From NCBI GenBank assembly GCA_029259655.1, contig JAJDET010000264.1, forward strand, positions 1 through 64,000: a stretch of DNA of 64,000 bases, written 5' to 3'. Shown in pieces: positions 1 through 51,024 of this stretch; positions within the stretch are counted from its first letter, which is position 1; each line of letters starts with the position of its first letter. Origin of the DNA: Planctomycetota bacterium (GTDB taxonomy: Bacteria > Planctomycetota > UBA1135 > GCA-002686595). A model generated the notes under the pieces. That model saw only the letters and a program-made list of their open reading frames with translations. It searched no databases and was not told the origin of the DNA. A program made the position numbers and the translations under genes.

Positions 1-202
1 CTAGCCCGGACTATTCATGAGCCGCGAGGCAGAACGCCTCGATTCGGGTCCTGCCGGTACCTTGCGCGTGCCGGCCCCGCAGGCGACCTTGACGGGTCGC
101 CGAGGACGCCGGTGCGTGCAAGGTGCCGGCAGGGGCCGAAAGGCCGGCGAAGCCGGCCGTTCGTGGTGTTCGGTCCGCGTGGTCATGAATAGTCCGGGCT
201 AG
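1..202. repeat. MITE-like segment: perfect 20-bp terminal inverted repeats (1-20 and 183-202) flanking ~160 bp
   Basis: ctagcccggactattcatga at 1-20 is the exact reverse complement of 183-202. The interior is not palindromic. The two short ORFs share only their IR-derived ends. Confidence 0.5.
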
Positions 203-11619: not shown

Positions 11620-11923
11620 GCTTTTTTCGTGCCCCTCCCGTTCGAGGTGACAAGGCAACAAGGCGGTTCGAACCGTTCGCGGTACCGGTCCGCCCGCACG
11701 ACGATCTGTGACAACCAGGTGAGATCACTAACGAGGCGGTCGACGACCCGTTCGTCGCCGCCCGTAGTTCAACGCCGATCAACGCCCGGGGGCGTGATCG
11801 GCGTGTCGGCCGGGCCGACGGAGAGTGGAGCTGGCTCGAGGGGGAGCTCGCAACGCATCGCGCAATACGCGTCCTCTCCGTCGGCCCGGGCAGTGGGGAG
11901 CCCAAGGGCGCATGGTGCGTGTA

Positions 11924-11998
11924 GTTCAGTGGCGGAGCGGGAGGGTGTGAGCCTCCAGACCAGGGTTCGATTCCCTGCACGCACCCCCATCGCCCGGT
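11924..11998 (+). tRNA. tRNA-His (anticodon GTG) with G-1
   Basis: Manual fold: acceptor GTGCGTG/CACGCAC with an extra 5' G, D-arm GTTC..GAGC, anticodon stem GGAGG/CCTCC with loop GTGTGAG, T-arm CAGGG-TTCGATT-CCCTG. Confidence 0.8.
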
Positions 11999-12015
11999 AG
12001 AACAGGGAGCGGTAG

Positions 12016-12091
12016 CTGAGACGGTGCAAGCGCTGGTTCGAAACACCGGAGACGAGGGTTCGATTCCTTCCCGCTCCGCCCAACAAACGCC
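12016..12091 (+). tRNA. atypical tRNA (best fit tRNA-Phe GAA), possibly a pseudogene
   Basis: Good acceptor GGAGCGG/CCGCTCC and T-arm GAGGG-TTCGATT-CCTTC. D-stem has a mismatch. The only workable anticodon stem is CTGGT/ACCGG with loop TCGAAAC, which places C at position 33. Confidence 0.4.
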
Positions 12092-12098
12092 TCCGTAG

Positions 12099-12174
12099 CT
12101 CAGCCGGCAGAGCAGCGGATTCTTAATCCGAAGGTCGCAGGTTCGATGCCTGCCGGGGGCACCAGCAAAACTCC
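12099..12174 (+). tRNA. tRNA-Lys (anticodon CTT)
   Basis: Acceptor GCCTCCG/CGGGGGC with A73 and CCA. D-arm GCTC..GAGC, anticodon loop TTCTTAA, T-arm GCAGG-TTCGATG-CCTGC. Confidence 0.8.
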
Positions 12175-12193
12175 CTTCCCACTTCCAGGGTGG

Positions 12194-12266
12194 TGTAGCG
12201 GAAGCACGCGAGGCTCTGAACCTCGCAGCCGGGGTTCGAATCCCTGCCCTGGATCCACCACCTCGA
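12194..12266 (+). tRNA. tRNA-Gln (anticodon CTG)
   Basis: U1-A72 acceptor TCCAGGG/CCCTGGA with CCA. Anticodon stem CGAGG/CCTCG with loop CTCTGAA. T-arm CGGGG-TTCGAAT-CCCTG. Confidence 0.8.
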
Positions 12267-15964: not shown

Positions 15965-16348
15965 CTACTCTTCCGCGAGCACGCGCTGGATCGCGAGGAT
16001 GATCTCCGACTTCCCGTAGTCGTGCCCGGGGATCTTCACGCGGACCTCACCGTTCGCGTCGAACCCCACGAGCCCGTGCCGCTGTTCGGCGAAGCCGTAG
16101 GACTCGATCTCGGCGGTGCGCCGGTTCGTCTCCTCGGCCGGGATGACGTTGAAGTCCACATGCCCCTCGTACTCCTTCGCGAGCTCGCCCACGGCGGCCT
16201 CGACTTTCACGCAGAAGGGTCATGTGTCGGCGATCATGAAGTAGCGGATCTCCGGGAGCGCAGCGGGCTCCGCGTCCAGCTTCGAGGCGGCGGACTGGCA
16301 TGCCCCGAGGAGCGCGATCCCGAGCAGGGCGGCGATGGCGGTTCTCAT
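15965..16348 (-). CDS. thioredoxin-fold lipoprotein with an in-frame TGA at the first position of the redox motif (T-U-P-F-C): candidate selenoprotein
   Basis: MRTAIAALLGIALLGACQS...IRYFMIADT-[TGA at 16220-16222]-PFCVKVEAAVGELAKEY... is continuous in one frame. The ORF track splits it at the TGA. Beta1-CxxC-alpha1 thioredoxin architecture. Confidence 0.55.
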
Positions 16349-23745: not shown

Positions 23746-24354
23746 ATGGACATCTTCGAAGCCATTGCATCTCGCCGCGCCGTCAAGCACTTCGACCCGA
23801 ACCACCGCATGGACGAAGCGGAGACCACGCGGCTGATCGAGACCGCGATGCAGTCGCCGACTTCCTTCAACATCCAGCACTGGCGCTTCGTCGTCGTTCG
23901 GGATCCCGAGCTGCGCAAGGAGATCCGTGCGGTCGGCAACGATCAGGCGCAGATGACGGACGCTTCGCTACTGATCGTGATGACGGCGGACGTCATGGCA
24001 TGGAAGAAGGAGCCGCAGCGTTACTGGCGGAACGCCCCTGAAGCCGTCGCCGAGCTGCTCGTGAACTGGATGGGTCCCTTTCACGAGGGAAAACCCGAGC
24101 TGCAGCGCGACGAGGCTCAGCGCTCGATCGGCATCGCGATGCAGACGATCATGCTCGCAGCCCAGGGTATGGGTTACGACTCGTGCCCGATGATCGGCTT
24201 CGACAGCGATGCCGTGGCGAAGCTCATCCGGCTGCCCGAAGGCCACTGCATGGGTCCCATGGTCGCCGTGGGGAAGCGGACGAAGGACCCGTGGCCCAAG
24301 CCGGGGCAGCTCCCCATCTCCGAGGTCATGCTCACCGACAGGTTCCCGGCCTGA
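23746..24354 (+). CDS. nitroreductase-family protein
   Basis: MDIFEAIASRRAVKHFDPNH...SFNIQHWRFVVV is a typical NADH/nitroreductase N-terminus. Confidence 0.8.
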   Translation: MDIFEAIASRRAVKHFDPNHRMDEAETTRLIETAMQSPTSFNIQHWRFVVVRDPELRKEIRAVGNDQAQMTDASLLIVMTADVMAWKKEPQRYWRNAPEAVAELLVNWMGPFHEGKPELQRDEAQRSIGIAMQTIMLAAQGMGYDSCPMIGFDSDAVAKLIRLPEGHCMGPMVAVGKRTKDPWPKPGQLPISEVMLTDRFPA

Positions 24355-24360
24355 CGGGGT

Positions 24361-24960
24361 CTACTGTGACGGCTCCGTGGCGCGCGCGCTCTCGCGCTCG
24401 GCGAGGCGCGCCCACCAGGCCGCGACGTTCGGCGGGAGGTCGACGTCGAGCAGTGCGTGGAAGTGGAGGAACGGCAGGTAGGCGAGGTCGGCCCAGGTGA
24501 AACGGTCGGCGACGAGGTAGTCCTTCCCCTCGAGCTCGCGCTCGAGGATCGGGTAGTGGCAAGCGATCGCCTCCCGCGCGGCTGCCATCCGTTCGAGGTC
24601 CCAGCTCTCCTTCGGCTCGAGACGCCTCGGCCGCTGGATCCGGATGGCGTGGGGCGTGTACTCGAGGTCGCACAGCTTGACGTACATCACGACGCGCGCG
24701 CGGTCCGCGGGATCGTGGGGCACGAGAGGCGGCTCGGGAAACCGGGCTTCGAGATACTCGAGGATGGCGGTCGACTCGTAGAGAACGACCTGTCCGTCGA
24801 CGAGGGTCGGGATGCGGCCGTAGGGGTTGAGGGACCGGTACTCGGGTGTCTTCCGAGCGGCCGCATCGGTCTCCACCTCCTCGACGGTCACCCCCTTCTC
24901 GCGGAGCGCAATGCGAGCGCGGCGCGAGAAGGTGGAGTTGACCGCCGAGTAGAGCTTCAA
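24361..24960 (-). CDS. glutathione S-transferase
   Basis: MKLYSAVNSTFSRRARIALREKGV...LNPYGRIPTLVDG...LYESTAILEYL is the GST N-terminal thioredoxin-like domain. Confidence 0.85.
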   Translation of the reverse strand: MKLYSAVNSTFSRRARIALREKGVTVEEVETDAAARKTPEYRSLNPYGRIPTLVDGQVVLYESTAILEYLEARFPEPPLVPHDPADRARVVMYVKLCDLEYTPHAIRIQRPRRLEPKESWDLERMAAAREAIACHYPILERELEGKDYLVADRFTWADLAYLPFLHFHALLDVDLPPNVAAWWARLAERESARATEPSQ

Positions 24961-24966
24961 CGGCTC

Positions 24967-27432
24967 CTAGAACGGCACGATGTGGACGCTGTTCGTGAGG
25001 AAGGTCTCGCTCGACCCGAACACCAGCGACTGGAGGTAGAGGTCGAGGTTGGTCCAGAACGGATCGGTGGGGACGGTGGCCGTTCGCACGGCGAGGCGCG
25101 ACGCCGGGACGAATCCCTTGAACAGGAGGTAGTAGTTCGCGGGGTCCAGCAGGAAGTTCCCGGTCACGTTCGTGATCGGGATGTTGCCCGTCCCCGTGCT
25201 GAAGTAGTGGAGGAAGAAGTCGCCCTGCTGTCCCGAGAGGTTCAGCGTCAGCGAGGTCCCCTGCTCCTCCGACCCGTAGACGTTGAAGCGCGGGCGGTCG
25301 TCGTAGATCTCCACGACGACGTCGTCGACGGCGGCCTCGACCAGCGAGCCCGTCCCGGTGTCGGACGCGATGAAACGCAGCAGCATGTCCGCGGTCGGCG
25401 TCAGGAAGTCGTTCACGCGGAACTCGTGATGCGTCCACGCGCTGTCGGACACCGTCTCGGTCTCGAGCGTCGTCCAGTTCTGACCGGCATCGTTCGAGAT
25501 CTCGGCCACGAAGACGTCGTCGACGAAGGAGAGGTCGGCCCACCAGCGCCAGTAGCTGACGTACGCGACCGTCGCACCCGACAGGTCGAAGGGAGGCGAG
25601 AAGAGGGTCGTCGCCCCGCCGTCGACGTCATCGTTGCCCGCCGCGCCGCGACCGTTCCCGGTCACGAAGCACATGCTCGACGCACCCGCCGTGTGGTCGT
25701 CCTCGGGGTTCAGATCCTCGCCGCTGAAAGTCGTCCCCGTCGGGTCCGCACGCGTCCAGATTCCGGTCGTCGCCGTGTCACCCGTGTCGCCGACGCTCCA
25801 GCCGTGGTCCGCCTCGACGTTGTCGATGGCGAATGCGAAGCGTTCGCCCGTGATCACCTGAAAGTCACCGATGACGGTCGTCCCCTCGTAGTCCAGTTCG
25901 ACCTGGAACGGGATGACCGTCCCCGGAGCCGGGTTCCCGAGGATCGTCAGCGTGAAGGGCGTCGCCGCGTTCGTCGTGTCGCTGAAACCGGTGACGGCCC
26001 CGAAGTCGAACGTGGGCGCAGATGCCGCAGCATCGGGGCTGGTCGTCGTGACGCGCCCGATGACGTTCGTCCCCGGCGTCCCCCACCCGCTGTTTCGTGC
26101 CGTGACGACGACATCGATCGTCTCGCCGGGCTCGAAGAAGCCGTCTCCGTCCCCAGCGGGATCGCTCGTCTGGACGTCGCTCGCGCGCATGTACGCGCCC
26201 GCGGCGAGGGCCGTGCGGGCGAACGCCATCTGGTTCTCCATGGCGAGCGGGATGATGCGCGACGTGGCCGGCCAGAAGCCGTCGGTGTCGTTGCCGATCT
26301 CCGGCGTCCAGGCCATCGAGCCGTGGACTCCCTCGTCGTAGTCGTCAGTGACGCCGTTGGCCGGATAGAGCACCGTCCCGGGAACGTGCGCGTACTGGTT
26401 GAACTCGACGGCGAGGTCTCCGACCTCGATGTAGTCCGCGACGTTCGCGGGATCGAAGACGTCGTAGCCGTACGGACGGAGCCAGAGGTTCCCGTGGCAG
26501 TGGACCGTCAGCACGGTCACGAACGAGTGCGCCGCCATGAAGGTCTGCATCGCTGCCACCTCGCGCTCGCTCGCCGCCGCCGGACCTCGATACGTCTCAC
26601 TGTTCGCCGAACCGCTCGATCCGATGTTGTCGTAGCCCCACTGGAAGTCGTAGTTCCGGTTGAGGTCGACGCCGAAGATGCCGCCGCCGTTGTTGCGCCG
26701 GTTCTTGCGCCACAGACCCCCGCCGCCGGGGGCGATCGTCTCGTTGTAGACGTAGCCGTCCGGGTTCACGACGGGGACGAACCACTGCTCACGCTCGTCG
26801 ACGAGGTACGCGGCGAGGGGATCGGTAGCGTACTCCTCGGTGAGGAAGAGCACGTACCAGATGAGCGCGTGCATGCTCATCGGTTCGCGAGCGTGGTGCA
26901 TGGCGTCCATGCGGACCTCGGGCTCTCCCTCGCTCACACCAGGGTTGTCGGAAACCCTGAACGCCCACAGGTCCCGCCCCTGGAGGGTCGTCCCGAGGCT
27001 CTGGGGAACCGAGACGAGCGAGGGGTAGGCGGCCTGGATCTGGTTGATGACCGAGACCATCTCGCTGTAGGTGTAGTAGCCGCCCATCGACCCTGACCCG
27101 AAGGCCGGAGTCAGCCACTGTCCGAGCGTCGTCGCGCCGACCTGCGGCCCCGGATCCGCCGCGATCCGATCGGCGTAGAAGGACTGCAGGTCCTCGATCT
27201 CCACGCTGTAGGGCACGCCGAGCGCGTCGAGTCGGTCGAGGTCGTCCGCGTACGCGACGACGCGCGCCTCACGACCGTTGGGTGCGACCGAGATCATGTC
27301 GAGGTCGAGGGGCGCCAGCTCGAGGAGCGCTTTCCGACTCTCGAGCTCGATGCGGATCTGGCGTCCGCCGTCGGCGGGAGCCTGGACCTGGACAGGAAGG
27401 GGGATGAGGAGGAGGGCGGTGAGGGAGAGCAT
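24967..27432 (-). CDS. secreted M14-family zinc carboxypeptidase with a large C-terminal beta-rich extension
   Basis: Signal peptide, HHAREP (HxxE zinc ligands), carboxypeptidase-A-like core, then ~450 aa of Thr/Gly-rich domains. Confidence 0.75.
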   Translation of the reverse strand: MLSLTALLLIPLPVQVQAPADGGRQIRIELESRKALLELAPLDLDMISVAPNGREARVVAYADDLDRLDALGVPYSVEIEDLQSFYADRIAADPGPQVGATTLGQWLTPAFGSGSMGGYYTYSEMVSVINQIQAAYPSLVSVPQSLGTTLQGRDLWAFRVSDNPGVSEGEPEVRMDAMHHAREPMSMHALIWYVLFLTEEYATDPLAAYLVDEREQWFVPVVNPDGYVYNETIAPGGGGLWRKNRRNNGGGIFGVDLNRNYDFQWGYDNIGSSGSANSETYRGPAAASEREVAAMQTFMAAHSFVTVLTVHCHGNLWLRPYGYDVFDPANVADYIEVGDLAVEFNQYAHVPGTVLYPANGVTDDYDEGVHGSMAWTPEIGNDTDGFWPATSRIIPLAMENQMAFARTALAAGAYMRASDVQTSDPAGDGDGFFEPGETIDVVVTARNSGWGTPGTNVIGRVTTTSPDAAASAPTFDFGAVTGFSDTTNAATPFTLTILGNPAPGTVIPFQVELDYEGTTVIGDFQVITGERFAFAIDNVEADHGWSVGDTGDTATTGIWTRADPTGTTFSGEDLNPEDDHTAGASSMCFVTGNGRGAAGNDDVDGGATTLFSPPFDLSGATVAYVSYWRWWADLSFVDDVFVAEISNDAGQNWTTLETETVSDSAWTHHEFRVNDFLTPTADMLLRFIASDTGTGSLVEAAVDDVVVEIYDDRPRFNVYGSEEQGTSLTLNLSGQQGDFFLHYFSTGTGNIPITNVTGNFLLDPANYYLLFKGFVPASRLAVRTATVPTDPFWTNLDLYLQSLVFGSSETFLTNSVHIVPF

Positions 27433-27628
27433 TCGCGGGGCCTCGGGGAGGGGGTGAGGGCGAGGGTGGAGGGGCGAGGACGGTCTCCGGCGGCCGGAAG
27501 TGCCCCCATTCTATGGGAACTGTCCTGAGGGCGGCCTGGAGCCTGCGCACATATGGAATGGAGCGGCCCCGTCCCGTCCCTATCATCTGCACCCCCCTCG
27601 ACCGGCAACCGCTGCCAGGAGCCCCCCC

Positions 27629-27856
27629 GTGAAGATCACCATCGAATACTGCGTCCGCTGACACTACCTCCCGCAGGCGACCGGTCTGGCCGCCGAGATC
27701 GAGACGGCTTTCCCCGACAGCAAGATCGACGTCAAGCTCGTCAAGGGCGACAACGGCGCGTTCGAGGTGTCGCGCAACGGGAAGCTCGTCTACTCGAAGT
27801 TCGAGACGGGACGCTTCCCGGCGTATCAGGAGATCCCGCCGCTCTTGCTCGACTAG
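27629..27856 (+). CDS. SelW-like (Rdx family) protein with C-V-R-[TGA] motif: candidate selenoprotein
   Basis: VKITIEYCVR-[TGA at 27659-27661]-HYLPQATGLAAEIETAFP...GAFEVSRNGKLVYSKFETGRFPAYQEI matches the Rdx/SelW pattern (IEYCxxU, G.FEV, SK..GrFP). GTG start with AGGAG ribosome-binding site. Missing from the ORF track because of the TGA. Confidence 0.6.
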
Positions 27857-27857
27857 A

Positions 27858-28475
27858 GTGACGACGCCCGCCTACCGGATCGAGACGGAACGCGCGGTCC
27901 TTCGCTGCTGGTCGCCGGACGATGCCGGGCTGGTGCGCGAGTCGCTCGACGCCTCGGACCGGAGCCTCCGGCCCTGGATCCCGTTCATGAAGCACGAGCC
28001 CCGGTCCCTCGAGGAGACGGGCGAGTGGCTGCGCGGGCGCCGGACGTGGTTCGACGAGGACGAGCACTACTGCTATGGGGTGTTCACTCCCGACGAGTCC
28101 GCGTTGATCGGCGAGACGATGCTGCTCAAGCGGAGCGGCCCGGACGCCCTCGAGATCGGCTACTGGATCGACGTGCGGCAGACGGGGAACGGCTTCGCGA
28201 CCGAGGCCGCCGCGGCGATGACGCGCATCGCCTTCGAGATCGCGGGAGCGGAGCTCGTCGAGATCTGCTGTGCGCCCGAGAACGAGGCTAGCGCGGCCGT
28301 TCCTGCGAAGCTCGGCTACGAACACGAGGCGACGCTGAAGCGACGCTACGTCGACTGCGACGACGCGCGTCACGACTTCATGATTTGGTCCCTGTTCGCC
28401 GAGGACTACGACCGTTCGCCGGCGCGTGAGCTCGAGCTCCGCGCTTTCGACGCGAGCAGGCGAACGCTCCTCTGA
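27858..28475 (+). CDS. GNAT-family N-acetyltransferase (RimJ/RimL-like)
   Basis: Translation IGYWIDVRQTGNGFATEAAAAMTRIAF is GNAT motif A. Start is 2 nt after the SelW-like stop. Confidence 0.8.
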   Translation: MTTPAYRIETERAVLRCWSPDDAGLVRESLDASDRSLRPWIPFMKHEPRSLEETGEWLRGRRTWFDEDEHYCYGVFTPDESALIGETMLLKRSGPDALEIGYWIDVRQTGNGFATEAAAAMTRIAFEIAGAELVEICCAPENEASAAVPAKLGYEHEATLKRRYVDCDDARHDFMIWSLFAEDYDRSPARELELRAFDASRRTLL

Positions 28476-28505
28476 GCCGTACAATCTCATCCCCACCGAG
28501 GAGCC

Positions 28506-30707
28506 ATGATCGACACCCGCGCGAGAGCGAGGGCGCCCCTCCGCTCACGGCGCGGGTGGGTCGCCCGAATCGGAAGAGTCGCCGTCGCAGGCATGCTCAT
28601 CTCGGCAGGAGCTGCTGCCGAGGAGCCGGTCTATTCGATCACCGCCGTGCCGCCCGGAACCGAGCGGCCGGTGATCGACGGCCTGCTCGACGACCCGGCC
28701 TGGCGGAGCGCGCAACCGCTCTCCGCGCTGCGGCAGGTCGTCCCGGTCGCCGGCGCGGTTCCGACCGAGGAGACGGAGATCCGCTTGCTCTTCGACGAGC
28801 GCTCCATTTTCGTGCTGCTCGACTGCCGCGACTCCGATCCTGAACGCATCCGCGCCACGCAGTTGAAGCGCGACGCTCGTCTCGGCCCCGACGACCGCGT
28901 CGAGCTGTTCTTCGACACCTTCCTCGATCGGCGAAACGCGTTCTGGTTCCAGATCGGCGCGGGCGGTTCCAAGGGCGACGCCCTGATCGCGCGCAACGGC
29001 TCGCGCTTCAACAAGGACTGGGACGGGATCTGGTACGGGCAGTCACGTGTGACCGAGCGCGGCTGGCAGGCGGAGCTCGAGATCCCGCTGGCGACGCTCA
29101 ACTTCGACCAGGCCGGCACGAGCTGGGGCTTCAACGTGCGTCGCTTCATCCGGCGTCGCGAGGAAGAGGCACGCTGGGCGAGCCCGACGCCGCGACTCCA
29201 GTTCTTCTCGGTCGCGCACGCCGGGACGCTCCAGGGCCTCGCCGGTCTCCAGCAGGGCCTCGGGCTCGATGTGGTGCCCTTCGTCGTCGGGGACTGGCTC
29301 CGCGACCGAACGACGCTGGAGCAAGACCTCGAGGAGGACGTCGGGCTCGACCTCTTCTACAAGGTGACGCCCAGCACGAAGGTCTCGCTCTCCATCAACA
29401 CGGACTTCGCGGAGACCGAGGTCGACGACCGGCAGATCAACCTCACGCGCTTCGACCTGTTCTTCCCCGAGAAGCGCGACTTCTTCCTCGAGGACTCGAG
29501 CACCTTCGAGTTCGGACCCGACAACCGCGACGCAGTCCCCTTCTTCAGCCGCCGCATCGGCCTCGACGACAACGACAACGAGGTGCCCTTGCGGACTGCC
29601 GTGAAGGTCACGACGCAGACGGACTCGTTCAGCGCCGGGATTCTCGACGTCCAGACGTCGGACACGAGCTCGATCGACTCCAGGAACCTCCTCGCCGCGC
29701 GCTTCTCGAAGAACATCTTCGATCAGTCCGATATCGGACTCGTGTACACACGAGGAAACCCCACCGAGAACACCGACCAGGACCAGACCGTGGGCGTCGA
29801 CATGAACCTGCGGACGGATTCGTTCCTGGGCGACAAGAACCTGCGCTTCACGACGTTCGTGCAGGAGAGCCGCAACGAGGGTTCACGCGGCAGTGACGAC
29901 GCGGCGTGGTTCGCGTCGGTCGACTACCCCAACGACGAGATCGACCTCTCGTTCCAGTACCTGGGGGTCGACGACGACTTCGAACCCGAGCTCGGGCGGG
30001 CGCCGCGAACGGGTATCCGCAGCTACTTCGCGGACCTCAACTACCGCCCGCGCCTCTACGGCGACATCCGTCAGCTCCGCTTCAGCCTCGAGCCGAGACT
30101 CGTCACCAACGAGGGCAACGACACCGAGTCGGTCGAGATCGAGATCCAGCCGGTCGGGATCCTGTGGGAGTCGGGCGATCAGCTCGAGCTCAAGCTCACC
30201 CCGCGACGCGAAGTCCTCGATGCGGACTTCAACCTTCAGGGCGTGATCGTCCCGGCGGGCTCCTACGACTTCCGGAGGTTCGAGATCGAGTTCGAGAGCT
30301 CGAACAAGCGCCAGATCGAGCTCGCGGCTTCCTACGTCTTCGGCTCGTTCTTCGACGGCTACCGCCAGGACGTCAATCTCGGCGTCGGCATCCGGGCGAG
30401 CTCGCGCGTCCTGGTGGACATCGAGTACGAGTTCAACGACGTCGACCTCGACGGTGGCAGCTTCGACGTGCACGTCGCCAGGACTCGTGTCGAGCTCCAG
30501 TTCACGCCGCGCGTCTCGTGGTCGAACTTCTTCCAGTACGACAACCTCTCCGACCAGCTCGGCCTGAACAGCCGGATGTGGTGGATCGTCGAGCCGGGTC
30601 GCGAGCTGTTCTTCGTCGTCAACCAGGGCTGGGAAGCGGGCGGGGGCGACTACGCTCCGGTCGTGACGGAGCTCACGGCGAAGGTGGGCTACACCTTTCG
30701 CTATTGA
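28506..30707 (+). CDS. secreted protein with a CBM9/DOMON-like N-terminal domain and a large beta-rich C-terminal region (DUF5916-like)
   Basis: Signal peptide. DGLLDDPAWRSAQP...LDCRDSDPERI...AFWFQIGAGG resembles carbohydrate-binding family-9-like domains. Confidence 0.5.
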   Translation: MIDTRARARAPLRSRRGWVARIGRVAVAGMLISAGAAAEEPVYSITAVPPGTERPVIDGLLDDPAWRSAQPLSALRQVVPVAGAVPTEETEIRLLFDERSIFVLLDCRDSDPERIRATQLKRDARLGPDDRVELFFDTFLDRRNAFWFQIGAGGSKGDALIARNGSRFNKDWDGIWYGQSRVTERGWQAELEIPLATLNFDQAGTSWGFNVRRFIRRREEEARWASPTPRLQFFSVAHAGTLQGLAGLQQGLGLDVVPFVVGDWLRDRTTLEQDLEEDVGLDLFYKVTPSTKVSLSINTDFAETEVDDRQINLTRFDLFFPEKRDFFLEDSSTFEFGPDNRDAVPFFSRRIGLDDNDNEVPLRTAVKVTTQTDSFSAGILDVQTSDTSSIDSRNLLAARFSKNIFDQSDIGLVYTRGNPTENTDQDQTVGVDMNLRTDSFLGDKNLRFTTFVQESRNEGSRGSDDAAWFASVDYPNDEIDLSFQYLGVDDDFEPELGRAPRTGIRSYFADLNYRPRLYGDIRQLRFSLEPRLVTNEGNDTESVEIEIQPVGILWESGDQLELKLTPRREVLDADFNLQGVIVPAGSYDFRRFEIEFESSNKRQIELAASYVFGSFFDGYRQDVNLGVGIRASSRVLVDIEYEFNDVDLDGGSFDVHVARTRVELQFTPRVSWSNFFQYDNLSDQLGLNSRMWWIVEPGRELFFVVNQGWEAGGGDYAPVVTELTAKVGYTFRY

Positions 30708-35530: not shown

Positions 35531-38500
35531 TCAGAGAGGGTCGCCGGAGAGTACCCATCCCGCCCAGTCGCGCAGCTCGGCACCTTCGTCGCGCAGTGCG
35601 CGCTTGGCCTGCCACAGAGCCTCGACCTTCGGCACGCCCTCGAGCCAGAGCTTGGCGTAGAAGAGCTCCATGAGACGCCGCGTCATGGCGTCGTCGACCT
35701 TCCAGAGGCTCGTGATCGCCGTTCGCACGCCCGCTGCGTGGAGAGCTGCCTGCAGCGACTGGACGCCCTGCCCCGCGCGCCGGATGCCGACGCCCGTCTC
35801 GCACGCGCTGAGCACGGCGAGCTCGCACGCCGAGAGATCGACACCGGCCAGCTCCTCCGCGGTCAGGATGCCAGGTACGCGGCCCTGGGAATCGCGGCCG
35901 CGGTTGGCACCGGAGAAGGCGAGACCGCAGAGGGTCATCGGCGCGAAACCGGTCGCCGTCGCACGCGGGTCGAGCGCGTTCCACGGATCGGATTCCCGCT
36001 CCGAGTCGGCGTCGAGGGTCGACGGAACGCTGTCCGGTGCGAACCAGCCGTGGGTCGCGACGTGCAGGTACGACTTGCCGGGCGCTTGCGCGTGAAAGCC
36101 GGCCTTGGTCGCGTACTCGCCGAGGAGGACGAGAGGCCGGCGCTCGAAGGCCTCCTCGAAGAGAGCGCCGACCGCGTTCGCCTCCGCGCGCGTTTCGGCG
36201 AGCGGAGCGAACTTCGTCTGCGCCCCCGCGCTGCGCGTTCCGTGATCGACGGGAGCCGAAGACTCCCCGTCCGGGGAGTGGAGGCCGGTCCCGTCGAACG
36301 CCGCGTCTCCCAGGACCAGGAGCGCCGGCTCGGGCTCGGATCGGCGGGACGACACGACGAGGCGCGCGAACGAGACCTCGATCACGATCCGGTGGCGGTC
36401 ACCGACCCGCACGAGGCGCCCGCCCTCCGGCGGCCGGTCGAGCGGCAACGCGTCCAGCGGCACGACGTGGAGAAAGTCGTCCAGGCAGACGTAGAGGGTC
36501 GTGCCTTCCTCGAGCAGGTTGAGCACCGGGTCGAGGACGTACGCACGCAGGCGCCTCCCGGCCTCGTTCAGGTCGGGCTGGGGCGCGCCCGGATGTCCGA
36601 CACCCAGGCCGCGCGAGACCATCGGCTCCCCGGCGGCTTCGCGCCAGAGCTCCGCGAGCTCCTCGATCCGGGCCGCCGATCCGAGATCCACCTCGATCAG
36701 GGATCCGTCCGGACGCAGAACGTGTGCCGCCATGACCTCGCCCACGGAGCGGAACTCTCGCCATGCGTGGTGACGGAGGAACCCGACCGCGACGGAGCCG
36801 TCGGGCAACGCGCGCGCCACGTCGTCACTCTCGACGGAGCCGGCGAAGACGCCGCTCGCTACGCGATCGTCGCGTACCTCGCGTTCCAGCATGTCGCGCT
36901 CGCGCACGACCTCGAAGATCTCGGCGGCGTACTCCCCCAGCGTCTCGCCCCCACGAGGTCCACCCGCGACCAGGTCGGAGAGTCGCGCGCGCTGAGCGGC
37001 GACACGCTCGGACTGCGAGCTCGCGACCAGGCGACAGCCGGCCATGTTGGAGACCGCGCGCAGCGTCTCGGCCAGATCGAAACGCGCTTCCGCGAGACCG
37101 TCTGCACTGGCCCCACGGGTCAGGTAGCGCACGATCCTGTGGCGGTGCGACTCCCACCTCGCGATCTCCCGCGCTTCGCGAGGTGAGAGCGCCCACGCGA
37201 TCTCGAGCTGACGCCGAACGCCGCGCGCCAGATCCCGTCCGAGCCGGTGCGCTTCCTCGGTCTCCCCCTGTTCCAGTAGGATCAGAGCAAGGTTCTGGCG
37301 GGATCCGAGGAGGTCCGGGTGGTCCTCGGGCAACGTCCGCTCGCGAATGGCGAGGACCTCCGCCAGGAGCGCGCGCGCACGATCGACCTCGCCGATGTTG
37401 CGAAGCGTGATGGCGAGGTTTTCCCGTGCGCCCAGGAGGTTCGGGTGACCTGGGGGAAGCGTCCGCTCGAAACCCTCGAGCACGGACTCCTCCAGCTCCC
37501 GTGCTGCCGCGTGCTGCCTCATCCGCTTCAACAGACCCGCGAGTATCCCGCGGGCACGCAGGAGATCGGGATCGTCCCCGGACCGCGACTGCTCGATGCC
37601 GGCGAGCCCCGCCTCGAGGAGCCGGCGGGCCGCGTCGCGCTCGCCGAGATCGACCAGGATCCCGCTGAGATTGATGCGAGTCCGGAAGAGGTCCACGTGT
37701 TCACTCGGGAGCGTGCGCTCATAGCCGGCGAGTGCGCGTTCCGTCATGGCCCGCGCGGCGACGAGGTCGCCGATCGCGCGCAGGGTCAATCCCAGGTTCG
37801 CGTACGCCGGGAGCCGGCGCGCTTCGTCATTTCCCGCACGCTCGAGCACCGCGAGAGCCGATTCCTGCAGCGCGCGCGCGCGTGACAGATCGCCCAGCGC
37901 CTTGACGGTGTCCGCGAGATCGAGCCGCGCGCCGATAGCGAGCGGATGATCGCCCGCGACGTCGCGTTCGTACCCGGCGAGCACGCTCTCCTGCAATTCG
38001 AGAGCTTCGGGGAGCTGGCCAAGCTCGAAGAGAGTCGCTCCGAGCTTCGCGCGAACGCCGAGGATATCGGGATGCCCCGCAGGAAGGGTCTGCTCGCATG
38101 CGGCGAGAATCGACTCCTGGAGGTCGCGCGCGCGGTCCAGCTCTCCGAGCTTCAGGAGCGTCGTGGAGAGGTTCAGTCTCAGGCGGAGGACCATCGGGTT
38201 CTCGTCGGGCAAGGCCTCGCCCAGATCCGCCAGCGCCCGCTCCTGCAACCTGAGCGCTCCGTCGAGATCGCCCAGCGCGCGCATCGTCAACGCGACGTTC
38301 CCGCGTATGCGCGCGAGGCTGGGGTCGCCAGGACGGTACGCGCGCTCGGCGCTGGAGAGCAGCCCGTCCTCGAGCGCGAGTGCACCCTGGAGATCGCCCA
38401 GACTCTTCAGGGTGAGGGCCAGGTTCTCCCGCGCGCTGAGCGACATCGGGTGCTCTTCGCCGAGCGTGCGCACGAACCCGTCGAGCGTCGCCTCCTGCAA

Positions 38501-39046
38501 CGGACGAGCGCCGGCGAAGTCGCGGAGCTCGTACAGGGTGGCCGCAAGGTTCGAGCGAGCCCGGAGCAGATCGGGGTCGTCGTCGGGACGCGTGCGCTCG
38601 TAGTTCGCGAGGATCTCCTCCTCGAGCCCGCGTGCGCCGTGGAGGTCGCCGCTGGACGCCAGCGCCGTGGCGAGGATCGTCTTCGCGCGCAGGAGCGAGG
38701 GGTCGTCGGGGGGATGCAAGCGCTCGCGGTGCGAGACGATGCGAGCGAATGCCTCGCGGGCTCCCTCGAGGTGCCCGACGTTCCACGCGAGCACGCCCGC
38801 GCGCCAGAGCAACTCGAAAGCCTCGCCACTTTGCTCGTCGAGGGGGATCGCCTCCAGCGTCTCGAGCGCCGCTGCAAGGTCTGCACGCGCCGCTGCGGCG
38901 TCACCGGCTCCCAGCGCGCTCGCCGCACGCTCGAGCACGCGCTCGACGGAGGACAGGTCGACCGGGTGCTCGTCCGTCGCGCCTTCTTGACCGATCAGGG
39001 GTCCCGAGACCGCGAGGGCGATCAGAACAACGTTCGCGAGGGCCAT
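35531..39046 (-). CDS. secreted TPR-repeat protein with a C-terminal CHAT (caspase-like) protease domain
   Basis: Signal peptide, then >15 TPR units. C-terminal YLHVATHG (His) and AVLSACETG (Cys) form the CHAT catalytic dyad. Confidence 0.85.
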   Translation of the reverse strand: MALANVVLIALAVSGPLIGQEGATDEHPVDLSSVERVLERAASALGAGDAAAARADLAAALETLEAIPLDEQSGEAFELLWRAGVLAWNVGHLEGAREAFARIVSHRERLHPPDDPSLLRAKTILATALASSGDLHGARGLEEEILANYERTRPDDDPDLLRARSNLAATLYELRDFAGARPLQEATLDGFVRTLGEEHPMSLSARENLALTLKSLGDLQGALALEDGLLSSAERAYRPGDPSLARIRGNVALTMRALGDLDGALRLQERALADLGEALPDENPMVLRLRLNLSTTLLKLGELDRARDLQESILAACEQTLPAGHPDILGVRAKLGATLFELGQLPEALELQESVLAGYERDVAGDHPLAIGARLDLADTVKALGDLSRARALQESALAVLERAGNDEARRLPAYANLGLTLRAIGDLVAARAMTERALAGYERTLPSEHVDLFRTRINLSGILVDLGERDAARRLLEAGLAGIEQSRSGDDPDLLRARGILAGLLKRMRQHAAARELEESVLEGFERTLPPGHPNLLGARENLAITLRNIGEVDRARALLAEVLAIRERTLPEDHPDLLGSRQNLALILLEQGETEEAHRLGRDLARGVRRQLEIAWALSPREAREIARWESHRHRIVRYLTRGASADGLAEARFDLAETLRAVSNMAGCRLVASSQSERVAAQRARLSDLVAGGPRGGETLGEYAAEIFEVVRERDMLEREVRDDRVASGVFAGSVESDDVARALPDGSVAVGFLRHHAWREFRSVGEVMAAHVLRPDGSLIEVDLGSAARIEELAELWREAAGEPMVSRGLGVGHPGAPQPDLNEAGRRLRAYVLDPVLNLLEEGTTLYVCLDDFLHVVPLDALPLDRPPEGGRLVRVGDRHRIVIEVSFARLVVSSRRSEPEPALLVLGDAAFDGTGLHSPDGESSAPVDHGTRSAGAQTKFAPLAETRAEANAVGALFEEAFERRPLVLLGEYATKAGFHAQAPGKSYLHVATHGWFAPDSVPSTLDADSERESDPWNALDPRATATGFAPMTLCGLAFSGANRGRDSQGRVPGILTAEELAGVDLSACELAVLSACETGVGIRRAGQGVQSLQAALHAAGVRTAITSLWKVDDAMTRRLMELFYAKLWLEGVPKVEALWQAKRALRDEGAELRDWAGWVLSGDPL

Positions 39047-39106
39047 CTCGTCCTGCTCCTGCCGCGATTCTATCCGCGAGCACGAGAACTCGCGGGGAAC
39101 CGGATC

Positions 39107-40699
39107 CTAGCGAGCCGAGACGAGCACGACGAGCAGGAGCAAGTTGGTCACCGCGTGCGCAACGATCGCCCCGCCGAGTCCCCGTCGCGACCGGATCGCG
39201 AAGTAGGCCGCACCGGCAACCGCGCCGGCGAGCCAGCGCTCGTGCGCGAGGCCGAAGAGCACCGAGGACACCGCGCACACCAGTGGCGCGAGGCGACCCC
39301 GCGCCCCGCCCAGACGGTCGACCAGGTAGCCGCGGAACGCCAGCTCCTCGACCAGAGGCACGACGAGCGCAGACCCCGCGAATCTCGCGACGAGCCAGCC
39401 GACGGTCTCGGCGTCGAGCACTCCCCGTACCCGGGCGAGGTGTTCCGGCGGCACGAGCGGCTCGCCCGCGAGGCCGGCGCTCGCGAGCCAGAACACGAAC
39501 ACCGCAGCGCCGCAGAAGAGCGCCGGCGCGCTCGGGCGAAGATCGATCTTCGAGTAGCGCCGTCGGTAGGCGAACACCACCAGCAAGGGCGCGAGGAACC
39601 GCAGCCACTCGACGTCACCCGGCCGCGCGCTGGCCGTCGCCAGGAGCAGGCCGGCGCCCAGAAAGACGACGAGGGGCAAGAGGAACGTCGATCCGTCGCC
39701 CGGCGGAACGCGATCGGACGCGGGCTCGCGGCGGAAGAAGCTCGCGCGCCGCGCGAGCACCGCCAGCCCGATCGCAAGTCCGCAGAAGAGCACCCACCCT
39801 GCACGCGAGTGGAAGGCACCTACCGCGAGCTCGGGCGAGACCGTGTCACCGATCAGCACGAGCGCTGCGATGCGGACGACGTTCGCGCCGAACGAGAGGA
39901 GTGTCCCCAGCGGCAAGAGCAACAGGGCGTGCGGAAAGCGAAGCTCGTCTCGTCGCAACCAGAGGTGCACGCAGAGAAACACCCACAGGAGGCCCATACC
40001 CTCATAGCCGGAACACCCGGCGCCGATCCTCACGACGAAGTCCGGTGTTCCAACCGCCAGCTCGTCCACGTCGACGAGAACGTCACCCGTGGCGATGCCC
40101 AGGACCACGGCGACGCTCCTCAGCGTGAGCGCGCCGAGCATGCGCCACAAGGGCGCGTCCCCCGCGCTTCCGGCGGAATAGGCGGCGAGGCCGACGACCA
40201 CGCCCGTCGCCATGGCGCACGTGCGCCGGCGCACGGGGAACAAGAGCGCGCGGACCGGTACCGCCAGCGCGAGGATGGAGAGCGCTGTCGAGGCCCCGGT
40301 CGCCGCCCAGACGAGGAGCAGGAACCAGGTCGCGAGCGTGTCCCCGCCACGCGCGTCGAAGAGGTGCCAGGTGAGCGCGCTGAAGACCGTCACGGCCGCG
40401 ACGTGCGCGACGAGGAGCTGCCGGTTCGGTGTCTCGGACGACCTCGCATCCAGGAACGCACGCAGGTCCGTCCTCCCCGACGTCGCGGCCCACGCGGCAC
40501 CGACCGCGAGCGCAGCCGGGAACGCGACCGCGCTGTGTGCGAGGAGTCGCGCCCAGACGTGCGAGCTGGCGCGCAGCGCTGCGGTGTCGAACACGCTCGT
40601 GAGCGCGATCCCCTCGAGCGCGAGGATCGTGCACGCGAGCGCGAGTCGCAGTGCTCCCCCACGCTCCGCGGAGTGCACGAGGACGGGGGGGGCTTCCAC
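39107..40699 (-). CDS. exosortase-family transpeptidase fused to a CPBP/CAAX (Abi) intramembrane protease; XrtE-like
   Basis: N-terminal half carries exosortase motifs (Cys in RIGAGCSGYEG, Asn/Arg in FGANVVRIAAL). C-terminal half carries CPBP motifs EELAFRGY, FGLAHE and HAVTN. Confidence 0.7.
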   Translation of the reverse strand: MEAPPVLVHSAERGGALRLALACTILALEGIALTSVFDTAALRASSHVWARLLAHSAVAFPAALAVGAAWAATSGRTDLRAFLDARSSETPNRQLLVAHVAAVTVFSALTWHLFDARGGDTLATWFLLLVWAATGASTALSILALAVPVRALLFPVRRRTCAMATGVVVGLAAYSAGSAGDAPLWRMLGALTLRSVAVVLGIATGDVLVDVDELAVGTPDFVVRIGAGCSGYEGMGLLWVFLCVHLWLRRDELRFPHALLLLPLGTLLSFGANVVRIAALVLIGDTVSPELAVGAFHSRAGWVLFCGLAIGLAVLARRASFFRREPASDRVPPGDGSTFLLPLVVFLGAGLLLATASARPGDVEWLRFLAPLLVVFAYRRRYSKIDLRPSAPALFCGAAVFVFWLASAGLAGEPLVPPEHLARVRGVLDAETVGWLVARFAGSALVVPLVEELAFRGYLVDRLGGARGRLAPLVCAVSSVLFGLAHERWLAGAVAGAAYFAIRSRRGLGGAIVAHAVTNLLLLVVLVSAR

Positions 40700-41054: not shown

Positions 41055-42338
41055 CTACCGAGCCAGACGGAAGCCCGCGAACATCCAGCGCTGGTGTGGG
41101 TAGAAGAAGTTGCGGTACGTCCGGCGCAGGTGACTCTCCGGCGTGACGCAGCACCCGCCGCGCAGGACGAGCTGGTTGATCATGAACTTGCCGTTGTACT
41201 CGCCGAGCTCGCCCTCGAAGGGCTCGTAGCCGGGGTAGGGCGCGTAGGGGCTGCGCGTCCACTCCCACACGTCGCCGAAGAGCTGTCCGAGCGAATCGCC
41301 CTCGGGCGCGGAGGACAACCGACGCGGGTGGTACGCACCGGACTCCAGGAACGTCCCGGTCGCAGCGTGTCCCTCGGCCGCGCGCTCCCACTCGAGCTCC
41401 GACGGCAGCCGGCAGCCGGCCCACGTGGCGTAGGCGTCGGCCTCGTAGTAGCTGACGTGGCAGACCGGCTCGCCCGGGTCTATATCGCGAAGCCCGCCGA
41501 GCGTCATCGCGCTTCCCGTGTCGGGTTCCCAGTAGAGCGGTGCGCGCCAGTCCTCCCGCTGCACATGGTCCCAGCCGTCCGCGAGCCAGAGCTCCGAGCG
41601 TCGGTAGCCTCCGTCGTCGACGAAAGCGCTGTACTCGCCGCACGTGACCGGACGCGAGGCGAGCTCGAACGGCTCGAGTCGCGCGGTGTGCCGCGGGCGC
41701 TCGTTGTCGTAGGCGAACCCGCTCCCCTCGTGGCCGATCTCCACGTCCCCACCGTCGAACGAGCGCCACTCGACCGCCGGGACGGCCACCACGGGAATCA
41801 GCGTGCCGGTCGGCGAGGGCCGGCGCCCGTAGGCGGGGCGCATCGGGTTCCCCGCGAGCACGTGCTTCACGTCCATGAGCAGGAGCTCCTGGTGCTGCTG
41901 CTCGTGGTGCATGCCGATGGTCAGGACCGGCGCCACACTCTCGACGCACTCGCGCGAGCCGTCCTCGAGGAGCGCGGTCATCGCCTCGTCGACGTGACGG
42001 CGGTAGTCGCGCACTTCGTCCACGGTCGGCCGCGACAGGAGCCCGCGGCGCGAGCGAGGGAAAGGGTCTCCCAGCGACTGGTAGTAGGAGTTGAAGATCG
42101 CCGAGAAGCGCTCGTCGAAGAGGGAGTACTGCGCGCCGCTCCGCTCGAGCACGAGGGTCTCGAAGAACCACGTGACGTGGGCCAGGTGCCACTTGGTCGG
42201 ACTGACGTCGGGCATGGTCTGCACCACCATGTCCTCCGTCTCGAGAGGCTCGCATAGCGCTTCGGTCACGGACCGCACGCGCTCGTAGGCACGAAGCAGC
42301 TCGCCGCGCTCCTGAGTGATCGGAATCGAGAGAGTCAT
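41055..42338 (-). CDS. egtB: EgtB-like sulfoxide synthase (DinB_2 + FGE-sulfatase domains), ergothioneine/ovothiol-type
   Basis: N-terminal DinB-like HLAHVTWFFE...HHEQQHQELL iron-binding motifs plus a C-terminal FGE-like domain (WEWT...PYPGY). Confidence 0.7.
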   Translation of the reverse strand: MTLSIPITQERGELLRAYERVRSVTEALCEPLETEDMVVQTMPDVSPTKWHLAHVTWFFETLVLERSGAQYSLFDERFSAIFNSYYQSLGDPFPRSRRGLLSRPTVDEVRDYRRHVDEAMTALLEDGSRECVESVAPVLTIGMHHEQQHQELLLMDVKHVLAGNPMRPAYGRRPSPTGTLIPVVAVPAVEWRSFDGGDVEIGHEGSGFAYDNERPRHTARLEPFELASRPVTCGEYSAFVDDGGYRRSELWLADGWDHVQREDWRAPLYWEPDTGSAMTLGGLRDIDPGEPVCHVSYYEADAYATWAGCRLPSELEWERAAEGHAATGTFLESGAYHPRRLSSAPEGDSLGQLFGDVWEWTRSPYAPYPGYEPFEGELGEYNGKFMINQLVLRGGCCVTPESHLRRTYRNFFYPHQRWMFAGFRLAR

Positions 42339-42449: not shown

Positions 42450-43421
42450 ATGAGCCCTCTCGCGATGCTTCTTGCCTCACTCCGGAAGGAACCCGACCGC
42501 GCCGCCGCGACGGGCTTCGTCATCAGCCTGGCTATCGGCTGTGGCAAGGTTGGGGACGAGCCGGACGGACCGGGGCGACTCGAGAGCTCGGGCGGGATGG
42601 AGCTCGTGCTCGTCCCCGCAGGCGAGTTCCTGATGGGATCCAGGGACGCCGGCATGCACCGGGAGCAAGAGCTCCCGCGCCACCGAGTCGTCGTCACCCG
42701 CCCGTTCTACATCGGCGTGACGGAAGTCACGGTCGGTCAGTTCGCGGAGTTCGTCGAGGCGACCGACTATCGCACCGAGGCCGAACGCGACCCGCAGGGC
42801 GGCTTCGGCTTCGACCTCGGCACGGGCTCGCCCCTCCAGACCGGGGGACTCTCGTGGCGTGACCCGGGCTTCGAGCAGACGAACGAGCACCCGGTCGTGC
42901 AGGTCAGCTGGATCGACGCGGAGGCGTTCTGCCAGTGGCTCTCCGAGCGCGACGATCGTCGCTACCGCCTCCCCACGGAAGCCGAGTGGGAGTACGCGGC
43001 TCGCGCGGGGACAACGACGCGCTGGTTCTTCGGCGAAGACCCTTCGGAGCTCTCCGAGTTCGCGAACATCGCAGACGCCTCGCTTCCGGCTGCCTTCCCC
43101 GAAGTCGACTGGGCGGCGGAATGGGACGACGGGCACGCGTTCACGTCCCCGGTCGGCCGCCGTCGGGCCAATCCATGGGGACTCCACGACGTGATAGGCA
43201 ACGTCTGGGAATGGTGCGCCGACTGGCACGACGCCGACTACTACGCGGCTTCGCCGGAGAGGGATCCACAGGGACCCGACGAGGGGCGCATGCGCGCGGT
43301 TCGCGGGGGTGGCTGGTACGACCCCGTGCAGCGCACGCGCTCTGCGCAGCGCGCCTGGTTCTCTCCGGTCTTCCGCTACTGCCAGCTGAGCGGATTCCGG
43401 GTCGTGTGCGAGGTCCAGTAG
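42450..43421 (+). CDS. formylglycine-generating-enzyme (FGE/SUMF1) family lipoprotein
   Basis: Lipobox AIGCG. MVLVPAGEFLMGS...HPVVQVSWIDAEAFCQWL...RLPTEAEWEYAARAG is typical FGE-sulfatase. Confidence 0.8.
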   Translation: MSPLAMLLASLRKEPDRAAATGFVISLAIGCGKVGDEPDGPGRLESSGGMELVLVPAGEFLMGSRDAGMHREQELPRHRVVVTRPFYIGVTEVTVGQFAEFVEATDYRTEAERDPQGGFGFDLGTGSPLQTGGLSWRDPGFEQTNEHPVVQVSWIDAEAFCQWLSERDDRRYRLPTEAEWEYAARAGTTTRWFFGEDPSELSEFANIADASLPAAFPEVDWAAEWDDGHAFTSPVGRRRANPWGLHDVIGNVWEWCADWHDADYYAASPERDPQGPDEGRMRAVRGGGWYDPVQRTRSAQRAWFSPVFRYCQLSGFRVVCEVQ

Positions 43422-49908: not shown

Positions 49909-51024
49909 ATGATCGCCGCCCTTCTCCTCGCCGCAGGCCCGCTCGTCCCCCATCTGTCGGACCCTCCGTCCAGGACCGAACCCGCCCTGCGCGGACTCGA
50001 TCCCGTGCTGCTCTGCGAGGAGAGCGCGGAGACTCCGGGTCGCCAGGACCTGCAGGTCACGCACGGCCGCTTCACCTACTGCTTCTCCGGGGCAGAGACG
50101 CGCGTGCGTTTCCTCGACGACCCCGAGCGCTTCGGCATCCAGTGGGGCGGCGGCTGCGGCGCGATGGGTCCGCTCTCCGGAATCGGGAGCCCCGAGCGCT
50201 GGGCCGTCCACGCCGGCCGTATCTACATCTTCGCCTCGGACGGTTGCCGCGAGGGTTTCCTGGACGCGCCCGAGCGCTTCGTGGTCGCGCCGGCCGAGCC
50301 CCCGACCTTCCCGGAAGAAGAAGGTGAGGTGCGGTGGAAAGCTGGAGCAGCCATGCTCCTGCAAGCGGTCCGCGCGCACGGTGGCGTCCAGGCGATCGAC
50401 GCCCCGCGCGCCCTCAGGCTCGTCTACCAGGGGACGCAGGACGACTGGACGCACCGGATCGAGCTCGTCTTCACGCGCGATGCGCTCGAGCGCAGCTCCA
50501 TCTGGACTCCGCCCGCGGACGGGGCTGCGAGAGAGGTCACGCGGTGGGTGCTGGCGGAATCCGCCTTCGTCGACGAGGGCGGAGCTGTCTTCCCGGTAAC
50601 GAGCCCGGATCAGGTTCTCGACCTGCGTCGCTTCGCGCACAGAGAGCCGATCGCGCTCCTGTGGGCAAGTGCCGGCTCTGACCTCCTCGCCGCGTGGACC
50701 GGCACGAGCAAGCTCCCCGGCAATCCGGGGGTCCGGGTCGTGGACGTCATCGTCCACCACGCCGGCCTCGTGACCACGCTCCACCTCGATCCGGAGTCTT
50801 GCAAGATCCTCGGGCTCTCCTGGCGTGGCCGCGCGATCGACGGCGTGACGCGCGACGTCGTCGAGGTCTTCACCGACTGGCGCGACGTCGGCGGTGCGCT
50901 CATCCCCACCGGACGGACGGTGATGGTGGATGGAGAGGTGACCCCCTCCCTGGCACTCACCTGGAACACCGCCGAGCTCCTGGCCCGGGTTCCGGCTCAC
51001 TCCTTCGAACGAGGTGTGCGATGA
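49909..51024 (+). CDS. secreted protein with two YHS/TRASH-like metal-binding modules
   Basis: RFTYCFSGAETRVRFLDDPERF and RIYIFASDGCREGFLDAPERF resemble YHS domains (YYFCS..C...F..DPEKY). Confidence 0.45.
   Translation: MIAALLLAAGPLVPHLSDPPSRTEPALRGLDPVLLCEESAETPGRQDLQVTHGRFTYCFSGAETRVRFLDDPERFGIQWGGGCGAMGPLSGIGSPERWAVHAGRIYIFASDGCREGFLDAPERFVVAPAEPPTFPEEEGEVRWKAGAAMLLQAVRAHGGVQAIDAPRALRLVYQGTQDDWTHRIELVFTRDALERSSIWTPPADGAAREVTRWVLAESAFVDEGGAVFPVTSPDQVLDLRRFAHREPIALLWASAGSDLLAAWTGTSKLPGNPGVRVVDVIVHHAGLVTTLHLDPESCKILGLSWRGRAIDGVTRDVVEVFTDWRDVGGALIPTGRTVMVDGEVTPSLALTWNTAELLARVPAHSFERGVR

Follow-up and report, generated by a model that had tools for sequence, protein, structure and literature searches.

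A SelW-like gene of a planctomycete contig that very probably encodes a selenoprotein, with a conserved SECIS hairpin inside its reading frame

A family of bacterial SelW-like selenoproteins has been known since 2005, and in eukaryotes the SECIS element is located in the 3' UTR and has a structure that is different from that of its bacterial counterpart. Among Sargasso Sea sequences, SelW-like proteins formed the most abundant selenoprotein family, with 48 genes containing selenocysteine (Sec) and 7 Cys homologues (PMC1088965), and they held the same rank in the GOS collection, where 427 Sec genes were counted alongside 56 Cys homologues (PMC2398784); in reviews from 2022 and 2026, SelW-like is entered as PF10262, with a CxxU motif and one Sec. 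The bacterial SECIS has been described as displaying a small apical loop that contains a G (Zhang and Gladyshev, PMC1088965), and in the element of E. coli fdhF the nucleotides U17, G23 and U24 are conserved, with G23 and U24 serving as key positions of the loop, and U17 and G23 described as SelB contacts (PMC8659212). For eukaryotic SELENOW, both an interaction with glutathione and a redox role have been proposed (PMC1088965).

The window considered here (that is, the whole stretch of 64,000 nucleotides that was analysed) contains a SelW-like gene that, very probably, is a true selenoprotein gene whose SECIS is functional. A preliminary description had placed such a gene at 27629-27856, with a CxxU motif and its TGA at 27659-27661, and both the coordinates and a match to Pfam PF10262 agree with that placement. 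The features of the gene are as follows:

27617-27621, + strand: Shine-Dalgarno-like AGGAG, read from the sequence, 7 nt 5' of the GTG start
27629-27856, + strand: SelW-like / Rdx-family gene, very probably for a selenoprotein; 75 codons plus TAG, CxxU at residues 8-11
27650-27652, + strand: TGC, Cys8 (resolving Cys of CxxU); TGC or TGT in 79 of the best 80 of 183 relatives
27659-27661, + strand: UGA predicted to be read as Sec, residue 11; TGA in all of the best 80 of 183 relatives, at the second Cys of CxxC homologues
27676-27694, + strand: SECIS hairpin; 7-pair stem, loop GGUCU at 27683-27687, beginning 14 nt after the UGA

When set beside the bacterial SelW-like family, the window gene is alike in a domain that occupies its whole length, in its N-terminal CxxU motif and single Sec, in its size of approximately 75 residues, and in the location of its SECIS inside the coding region just past the UGA; it differs in its GTG start, in the His that follows Sec, and in an A.C mismatch within the hairpin stem, none of which is essential. 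Eukaryotic SELENOW belongs to the same family and displays the same CxxU motif, but the window SECIS is a bacterial-type hairpin in the ORF, in contrast to the 3' UTR element of SELENOW. Solved structures of Cys-form Rdx proteins are homologous over residues 2-71 and carry their redox motif at the same place, with CxxC where the window protein has CxxU, and are longer (103-117 residues).

The hairpin itself may be compared with the E. coli fdhF SECIS, a 43-mer of which is present in 5,419 of 5,426 E. coli genomes. Both are hairpins in the coding sequence directly past the UGA, and the loop GGUCU is identical in the two, occupying nucleotides 22-26 in fdhF and 25-29 in the window gene as counted from the U of the UGA. 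The stem begins 11 nt after the UGA in fdhF and 14 nt after it in the window, such that the window loop is 3 nt (one codon) farther away; and while fdhF displays a bulged U17, the hairpin family of the window has no conserved bulged U, its stem being a plain 7-pair helix, with no extended lower helix conserved; the missing bulge and the longer distance were counted against the SECIS. Among the features that characterize the fdhF type (an 11-nt distance, a bulged U17, and G23/U24), only the loop GGUCU is therefore common to both. As judged from its sequence, the window element would work like the fdhF SECIS, and yet is a different element; its loop is small and contains G, in keeping with the general bacterial description.

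The reading frame extends from GTG 27629-27631 to TAG 27854-27856 with a sole internal TGA (27659-27661), and is translated as VKITIEYCVR-U-HYLPQATGLAAEIETAFPDSKIDVKLVKGDNGAFEVSRNGKLVYSKFETGRFPAYQEIPPLLLD, where U denotes the TGA codon; the peptide across the motif reads IEYCVR-U-NYLPQATGLVAELK. Homologues start at the same place, mostly with ATG, the GTG being that of the window copy. The residue after Sec, which is His in the window copy, is Asn in nearly all relatives, and was counted against the Sec reading. A scan of 27300-28700 for promoters and terminators found none. In public gene calls, the gene is uncalled in L081 (corresponding to window 26686-28707), while the database entries P0001-P0003 cover only its post-TGA part; a truncated planctomycete homologue of 53 aa (HED65293.1; L063/P0002) bears the NCBI name 'SelT/SelW/SelH family protein'.

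Profile searches, conducted with U replaced by C, firmly establish the family to which the protein belongs. Pfam Rdx (PF10262) was matched at E=3.7e-22, with 78.8 bits against a cut-off of 22.6 and with residues 2-69 aligned to positions 1-68 of 74 in the profile, and the match is therefore not due to chance; NCBIfam TIGR02174 ('SelT/SelW/SelH family protein') was matched with 65.1 bits against a cut-off of 34.2. The Rdx/SelW pattern that had been recognized in the sequence thus passes both curated thresholds, and alignment to CxxC homologues agrees with it. The best-scoring NCBIfam model was NF041051 (SelTWH_Campy; 85.4 bits, E=2.3e-24, residues 3-72 aligned to positions 1-68 of 70), for which the curated cut-off for equivalog membership is 88 bits; the window gene thus falls outside of that equivalog and belongs to the broader SelT/SelW/SelH subfamily alone.

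A search of the PDB returned seven Rdx-family chains matching residues 2-71, at E-values from 1.7e-9 to 8e-4: the best was human MIEN1 (C17orf37; 2LJK, E=1.7e-9), followed by Agrobacterium Atu0228 (2FA8, 7.7e-8), and the others were 3DEX, 2OJL, 2OKA, 2OBK and 2P0G. The segment I-E-Y-C8-V-R-U11 aligns with CEPC of 2LJK and with CTQC of 2FA8, C8 and U11 corresponding to the two cysteines of their CxxC. This homology to seven solved chains provides indirect support for a thioredoxin-like fold. An exhaustive HMMER search using the post-TGA part of the protein gave 127 cluster representatives, including 18 full-length CxxC proteins, 15 that read CxxW, and approximately 90 truncated entries that start just past the TGA; the CxxW entries are the product of the TGA having been translated under an alternative code (4 or 25). 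Homologues with Cys-x-x-Cys occur in metagenomes as well as in solved structures, and a lack of Cys homologues, which the preliminary description had named as grounds for rejecting the gene, is contradicted by those 18 representatives and by the CxxC structures of the PDB.

In order to follow the UGA across relatives, one genome per species was scanned, which confirmed 183 relatives; the 80 best loci among them were retained. Planctomycetota MAGs account for nearly all of those 80; the cultured Rohdeia mirabilis Pla163 contributes an orthologue (in L003), and a few loci are from Gemmatimonadota, Acidobacteriota, Desulfobulbia and others. The codon aligned to 27659-27661 is TGA in every one of the best 80, at protein identities across the TGA of 46-73%, and the first codon of the motif is TGC or TGT in all of them save L077, where it is also TGA. 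In these loci the frame past the TGA can be recognized up to a stop codon located approximately 60-68 codons further on; in the window, 64 codons follow the TGA, intact and conserved. A frame that was not conserved past the TGA had likewise been named as grounds for rejection, and the retention of both TGA and frame by all 80 related loci contradicts it. The planctomycete-centred SelW-like clade appears to be Sec-only, with TGA in 80 of 80 sampled members.

It is highly improbable that this UGA is decoded in some other way, whether through a reassigned code in which UGA denotes Trp or Gly, or through near-cognate read-through that would give Cys or Trp. Some database entries of the family do show W at that position (the CxxW entries, which were translated with code 4 or 25), and the 64-kb window contains no Sec machinery: Pfam scans of 40 of its ORFs found no SelA, SelB or SelD, and ARAGORN found no tRNA-Sec in it, reporting only tRNA-His, -Phe, -Lys and -Gln, and this lack was counted against the Sec reading. 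However, TGA is the commonest stop codon of the confident window genes, ending approximately 27 of approximately 38 such high-GC3 genes, including that of a GNAT protein and others that are Pfam-complete, and there is therefore no TGA-sense code here. Furthermore, the UGA occupies the position of the family's redox-active Cys/Sec, and the hairpin downstream of it, with its fdhF-type GGUCU loop and its loss in Cys forms, suits decoding that depends on SelB.

Decoding of UGA as Sec is supported independently by a second gene of the window, which was found by a GC3 screen for coding sequence that flanks a TGA on both sides:

15965-16348, - strand: thioredoxin-like UxxC lipoprotein, second selenoprotein gene of the window; UGA at 16220-16222, from ATG at 16348 to TAG at 15965

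Its predicted product reads MRTAIAALLGIALLGAC (lipobox; LLGAC)...RYFMIADT-U-PFC-VKVE..., and matched no Pfam family, and only weakly the NCBIfam models for thioredoxins of the SaoT and MJ0307 types. The homologues of this protein in databases are all fragments of 74-82 residues that begin past the TGA; at the DNA level, four different homologues (L134, L138, L139 and L140; 62-70% identity) conserve the TGA and both of its flanking frames, and encode a signal peptide upstream of the TGA. Gene callers split every copy, including that of the window (L133), into two small ORFs. It had been claimed beforehand that the window harbors a second Sec codon and that Sec usage is no artefact: the former corresponds to the minus-strand TGA at 16220-16222, conserved in four homologues, and the latter draws its independent support from that conservation. 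The screen also returned candidates at 23943 (-), 29723 (-), 34465 (-), 37883 (+) and 61114 (+), all of which were rejected as shadow frames of real genes.

The preliminary description had further proposed a hairpin with a GU-containing loop approximately 15 nt past the TGA of the SelW-like gene, and considered it to be compatible with a bacterial SECIS. The hairpin is located at 27676-27694, its exact distance being 14 nt, and RNAalifold, covariation, a covariance model and a Cys-form control all agree with its identification as a SECIS. In the window copy (GGCGACC-GGUCU-GGCCGCC), six of the seven pairs are formed and one is an A.C mismatch, which is common to 18 of the 79 distinct sequences of the alignment and was counted against the SECIS. 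That alignment consists of the window and 80 relatives, and spans 60 nt free of gaps. From it RNAalifold, unaided, predicts the same helix, and standard pairs account for 95.3% of the cells of the 7-pair helix, versus 15-52% when the partners are slid by 1-3 columns. Five of the seven pairs display double-sided changes, with 60 compensated cells as compared to 18 in shuffled alignments, and none of 500 shuffles reached 60; within the loop, G35 is invariant and U36 is present at 90% or more.

A covariance model (R1; 23 nt), constructed from the 80 relatives with the window left out and run unfiltered on both strands of the 64 kb, gave a single strong match, exactly at 27674-27696 (38.7 bits, E=8.6e-8), the next reaching 19.8 bits. 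That second match (window 80-103) is not a SECIS, lacking a suitably placed in-frame UGA and forming the tip of a long palindrome. No Rfam model matched the SECIS, a point counted against it; at the gathering threshold Rfam found only four tRNAs in the window, and the matches around the gene were at chance level.

The homologues with Cys in place of Sec provide a control. The hairpin is absent from the six Cys-form Rdx genes that were sampled, unlike the window gene: those six CxxC homologues pair at 4, 5, 2, 2, 4 and 1 of the 7 positions, with the GGUCU loop missing from five, whereas at least 6 of the 7 pairs are formed in 79 of the 80 Sec forms. Because the Cys forms lose the pairing and the Sec forms keep it, the hairpin is tied to the UGA. 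A Cys-form (CSAC) Rdx gene at L142:301-534, found also in L143, displays a GGTCT loop and five of seven stem pairs at the SECIS position, and resembles a fossil SECIS such as would remain after a recent change of Sec to Cys; fossil elements of that kind have been described in other families (PMC1794560).

That the hairpin might simply reflect conservation of the peptide QA(T/A/V)GL(A/V/T)AE, with some other signal driving Sec insertion, appears extremely improbable. The stem is located wholly inside highly conserved codons, and the folding energy of the single sequence past the UGA is no better than that of shuffled sequences (z=+1.19 and +0.78); that measure is uninformative, however, in sequence of 67% GC, and covariation was relied upon for that reason. 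Columns 27 and 45, which join the third base of a Gln codon with the third base of an Ala codon, are GC in 41 sequences, AU in 19, GU in 11 and CG in 3, while columns 30 and 42, which join the third base of an Ala codon with the third base three codons on, are GC in 64, CG in 8, UA in 3, AU in 1 and GU in 2. All changes in columns 30 and 45 are between Ala codons and hence synonymous, as are most of those in columns 27 and 42; since the covarying pairs join mostly synonymous third-codon positions, selection upon the protein cannot readily explain them. The alternations of amino acids at T..A, A..A, V..T and T..V are the same covariation as it occurs at first and second codon positions. In addition, the Cys-form P0022, with the similar peptide PQATALASE, does not keep the pairing. 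Selection thus acts upon the structure of the hairpin, which is linked to the UGA forms.

The idea that the gene is a pseudogene, or that an assembly or sequencing error has turned a Cys codon (TGC/TGT) into TGA and left a peptide of only 10 residues, is scarcely credible: the change from TGC to TGA would need a single base, and the ORF is absent or truncated in gene calls (P0001-P0003), but it is effectively refuted by the recurrence of TGA at that codon in every one of 80 loci, which come from different genomes, and it is also opposed by the 64 intact and conserved codons past the TGA, by a covarying hairpin that is tied to TGA forms, and by an identical 2,022-bp contig (window 26686-28707, TGA included) in the read-level assembly of run SRR15505512, which may share the window's source.

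On the reading of the gene as that of a SelW-like selenoprotein, translation would begin at GTG 27629, downstream of AGGAG, and at UGA 27659-27661 the hairpin at 27676-27694 would recruit SelB.GTP.Sec-tRNA(Sec), leading to insertion of Sec instead of termination. Homology to solved Rdx structures suggests a thioredoxin-like fold whose first helix opens with Cys8-x-x-Sec11, and in which Cys8 and Sec11 would cycle between selenol/thiol and selenenylsulfide; the product may thus be a small thiol/selenol oxidoreductase, whose reductant is probably glutathione or thioredoxin. For this gene and its product, binding by SelB, actual Sec insertion and redox chemistry are what we infer from those features.

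The window gene adds nothing new in kind, SelW-like CxxU proteins being among the commonest of bacterial selenoproteins. It and the UxxC lipoprotein gene matter for annotation, as standard gene callers omit them or break them in two, and the pair marks the organism as a user of selenocysteine. The SECIS of the SelW-like gene offers a clean comparative demonstration, which combines covariation at third-codon positions with the absence of the hairpin from Cys forms.

The SelW-like gene is flanked by the following genes:

24967-27432, - strand: M14 carboxypeptidase, divergent neighbour; Pfam Peptidase_M14, E=8e-59
27858-28475, + strand: GNAT (Acetyltransf_3, RimJ/RimL-like); Pfam E=2.3e-25, GTG start, TGA stop

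The stop of the SelW-like gene had been described as abutting the start of the GNAT gene, and this is so, a single base separating TAG 27856 from GTG 27858. A conserved SelW-like/GNAT operon was rejected, as tblastn of 3 kb of flank on each side found it in none of the 80 loci, and the adjacency therefore carries no functional weight. Similar searches for the DUF5916/CBM9 protein (733 aa), the aldolase and the GST had no match in the 3-kb flanks of the SelW-like gene across the 80 loci; in the window, the glutathione S-transferase gene (24361-24960, -) comes after the M14 peptidase gene, two genes away from the SelW-like gene. Residues approximately 490-697 of the M14 carboxypeptidase have tblastn matches in 14 loci, and a divergent, upstream, large secreted peptidase that has its C-terminal domain in common with the window M14 protein occurs in 35 of 81 loci. 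In the window the divergent secreted peptidase is an M14 carboxypeptidase, whereas L051, to give one example, has an HExxH metalloprotease there. Pyruvate kinase is found downstream of the SelW-like gene in 26 loci, and a MinD/ParA-like ATPase recurs near it in 23; no functional link between these recurrent neighbours (peptidase, pyruvate kinase or ATPase) and the SelW-like gene is evident.

The comparison of relatives also drew attention to SelW-like genes with TGA at both positions of the motif. One is L077 (3001-3219), from a Planctomycetota MAG near the window clade, and two cluster representatives read WGMW (P0012 and P0106). An exact-pattern scan of metagenome contigs for TAYTGAGGNATGTGAAAYTAY gave 51 loci, with approximately 30 full SelW-like ORFs of the form Y-U-G-M-U-N-Y. 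The loci with this UxxU arrangement are as follows:

UxxU loci: L077, L083, L085-L087, L090, L091, L094, L100, L101, L105, L107, L110-L115, L118-L120, L122-L131

With L077 included, the set consists of 29 complete ORFs, which reduce to 26 different DNA sequences and 24 different proteins (median identity between pairs, 75%), and a single UxxU protein cluster has 43 members. The contigs are mostly from marine metagenomes, at 39-58% GC, with normal coding density and with TGA as a stop; past the second TGA, the genes retain a hairpin whose loop contains GU. For the SelW-like family, UxxU is absent from the prokaryotic reviews of 2022 and 2026 and from the GOS paper (PMC2398784), and the reported UxxU forms of SELENOW are so far confined to two eukaryotes, amphioxus and Ostreococcus (PMC7539508). 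We would give even odds to the proposition that the SelW-like family has a bacterial subgroup, absent from those reviews of prokaryotic selenoproteomes, in which the resolving Cys has also been replaced by Sec. If both UGAs are decoded, one downstream hairpin would serve two UGA codons at a spacing of 9 nt, and a diselenide would be expected in the protein; such a subgroup would test how strict the spacing of the bacterial SECIS must be for decoding.

Several other features of the window may be recorded. Its four tRNA genes form a cluster at 11914-12257 (+; His-GTG, Phe-GAA, Lys-CTT and Gln-CTG). Positions 1-203 form a near-perfect palindrome of 200 nt with exact terminal inverted repeats of 20 bp (1-20 and 183-202), which folds to -168 kcal/mol (z=-17.4 versus shuffled sequences); found at the very start of the window, it could be a fold-back artefact of assembly at the contig end or a real palindromic element. 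A protein that combines DinB_2 and FGE-sulfatase domains, in an EgtB-like architecture, is encoded at 41055-42338 (-) and adjoins an FGE-sulfatase-domain protein at 42450-43421 (+); this architecture is known from enzymes that form C-S or C-Se bonds of the ergothioneine or selenoneine type. A YHS-domain protein (49909-51024, +) is encoded without an in-frame TGA, YHS-domain proteins being among the predicted families of prokaryotic selenoproteins (PMC9312934). Finally, at 35531-40699 (-), a TPR and CHAT-domain protein of 1171 aa is encoded directly downstream of an exosortase/CAAX-protease-like membrane protein, in the same frame.
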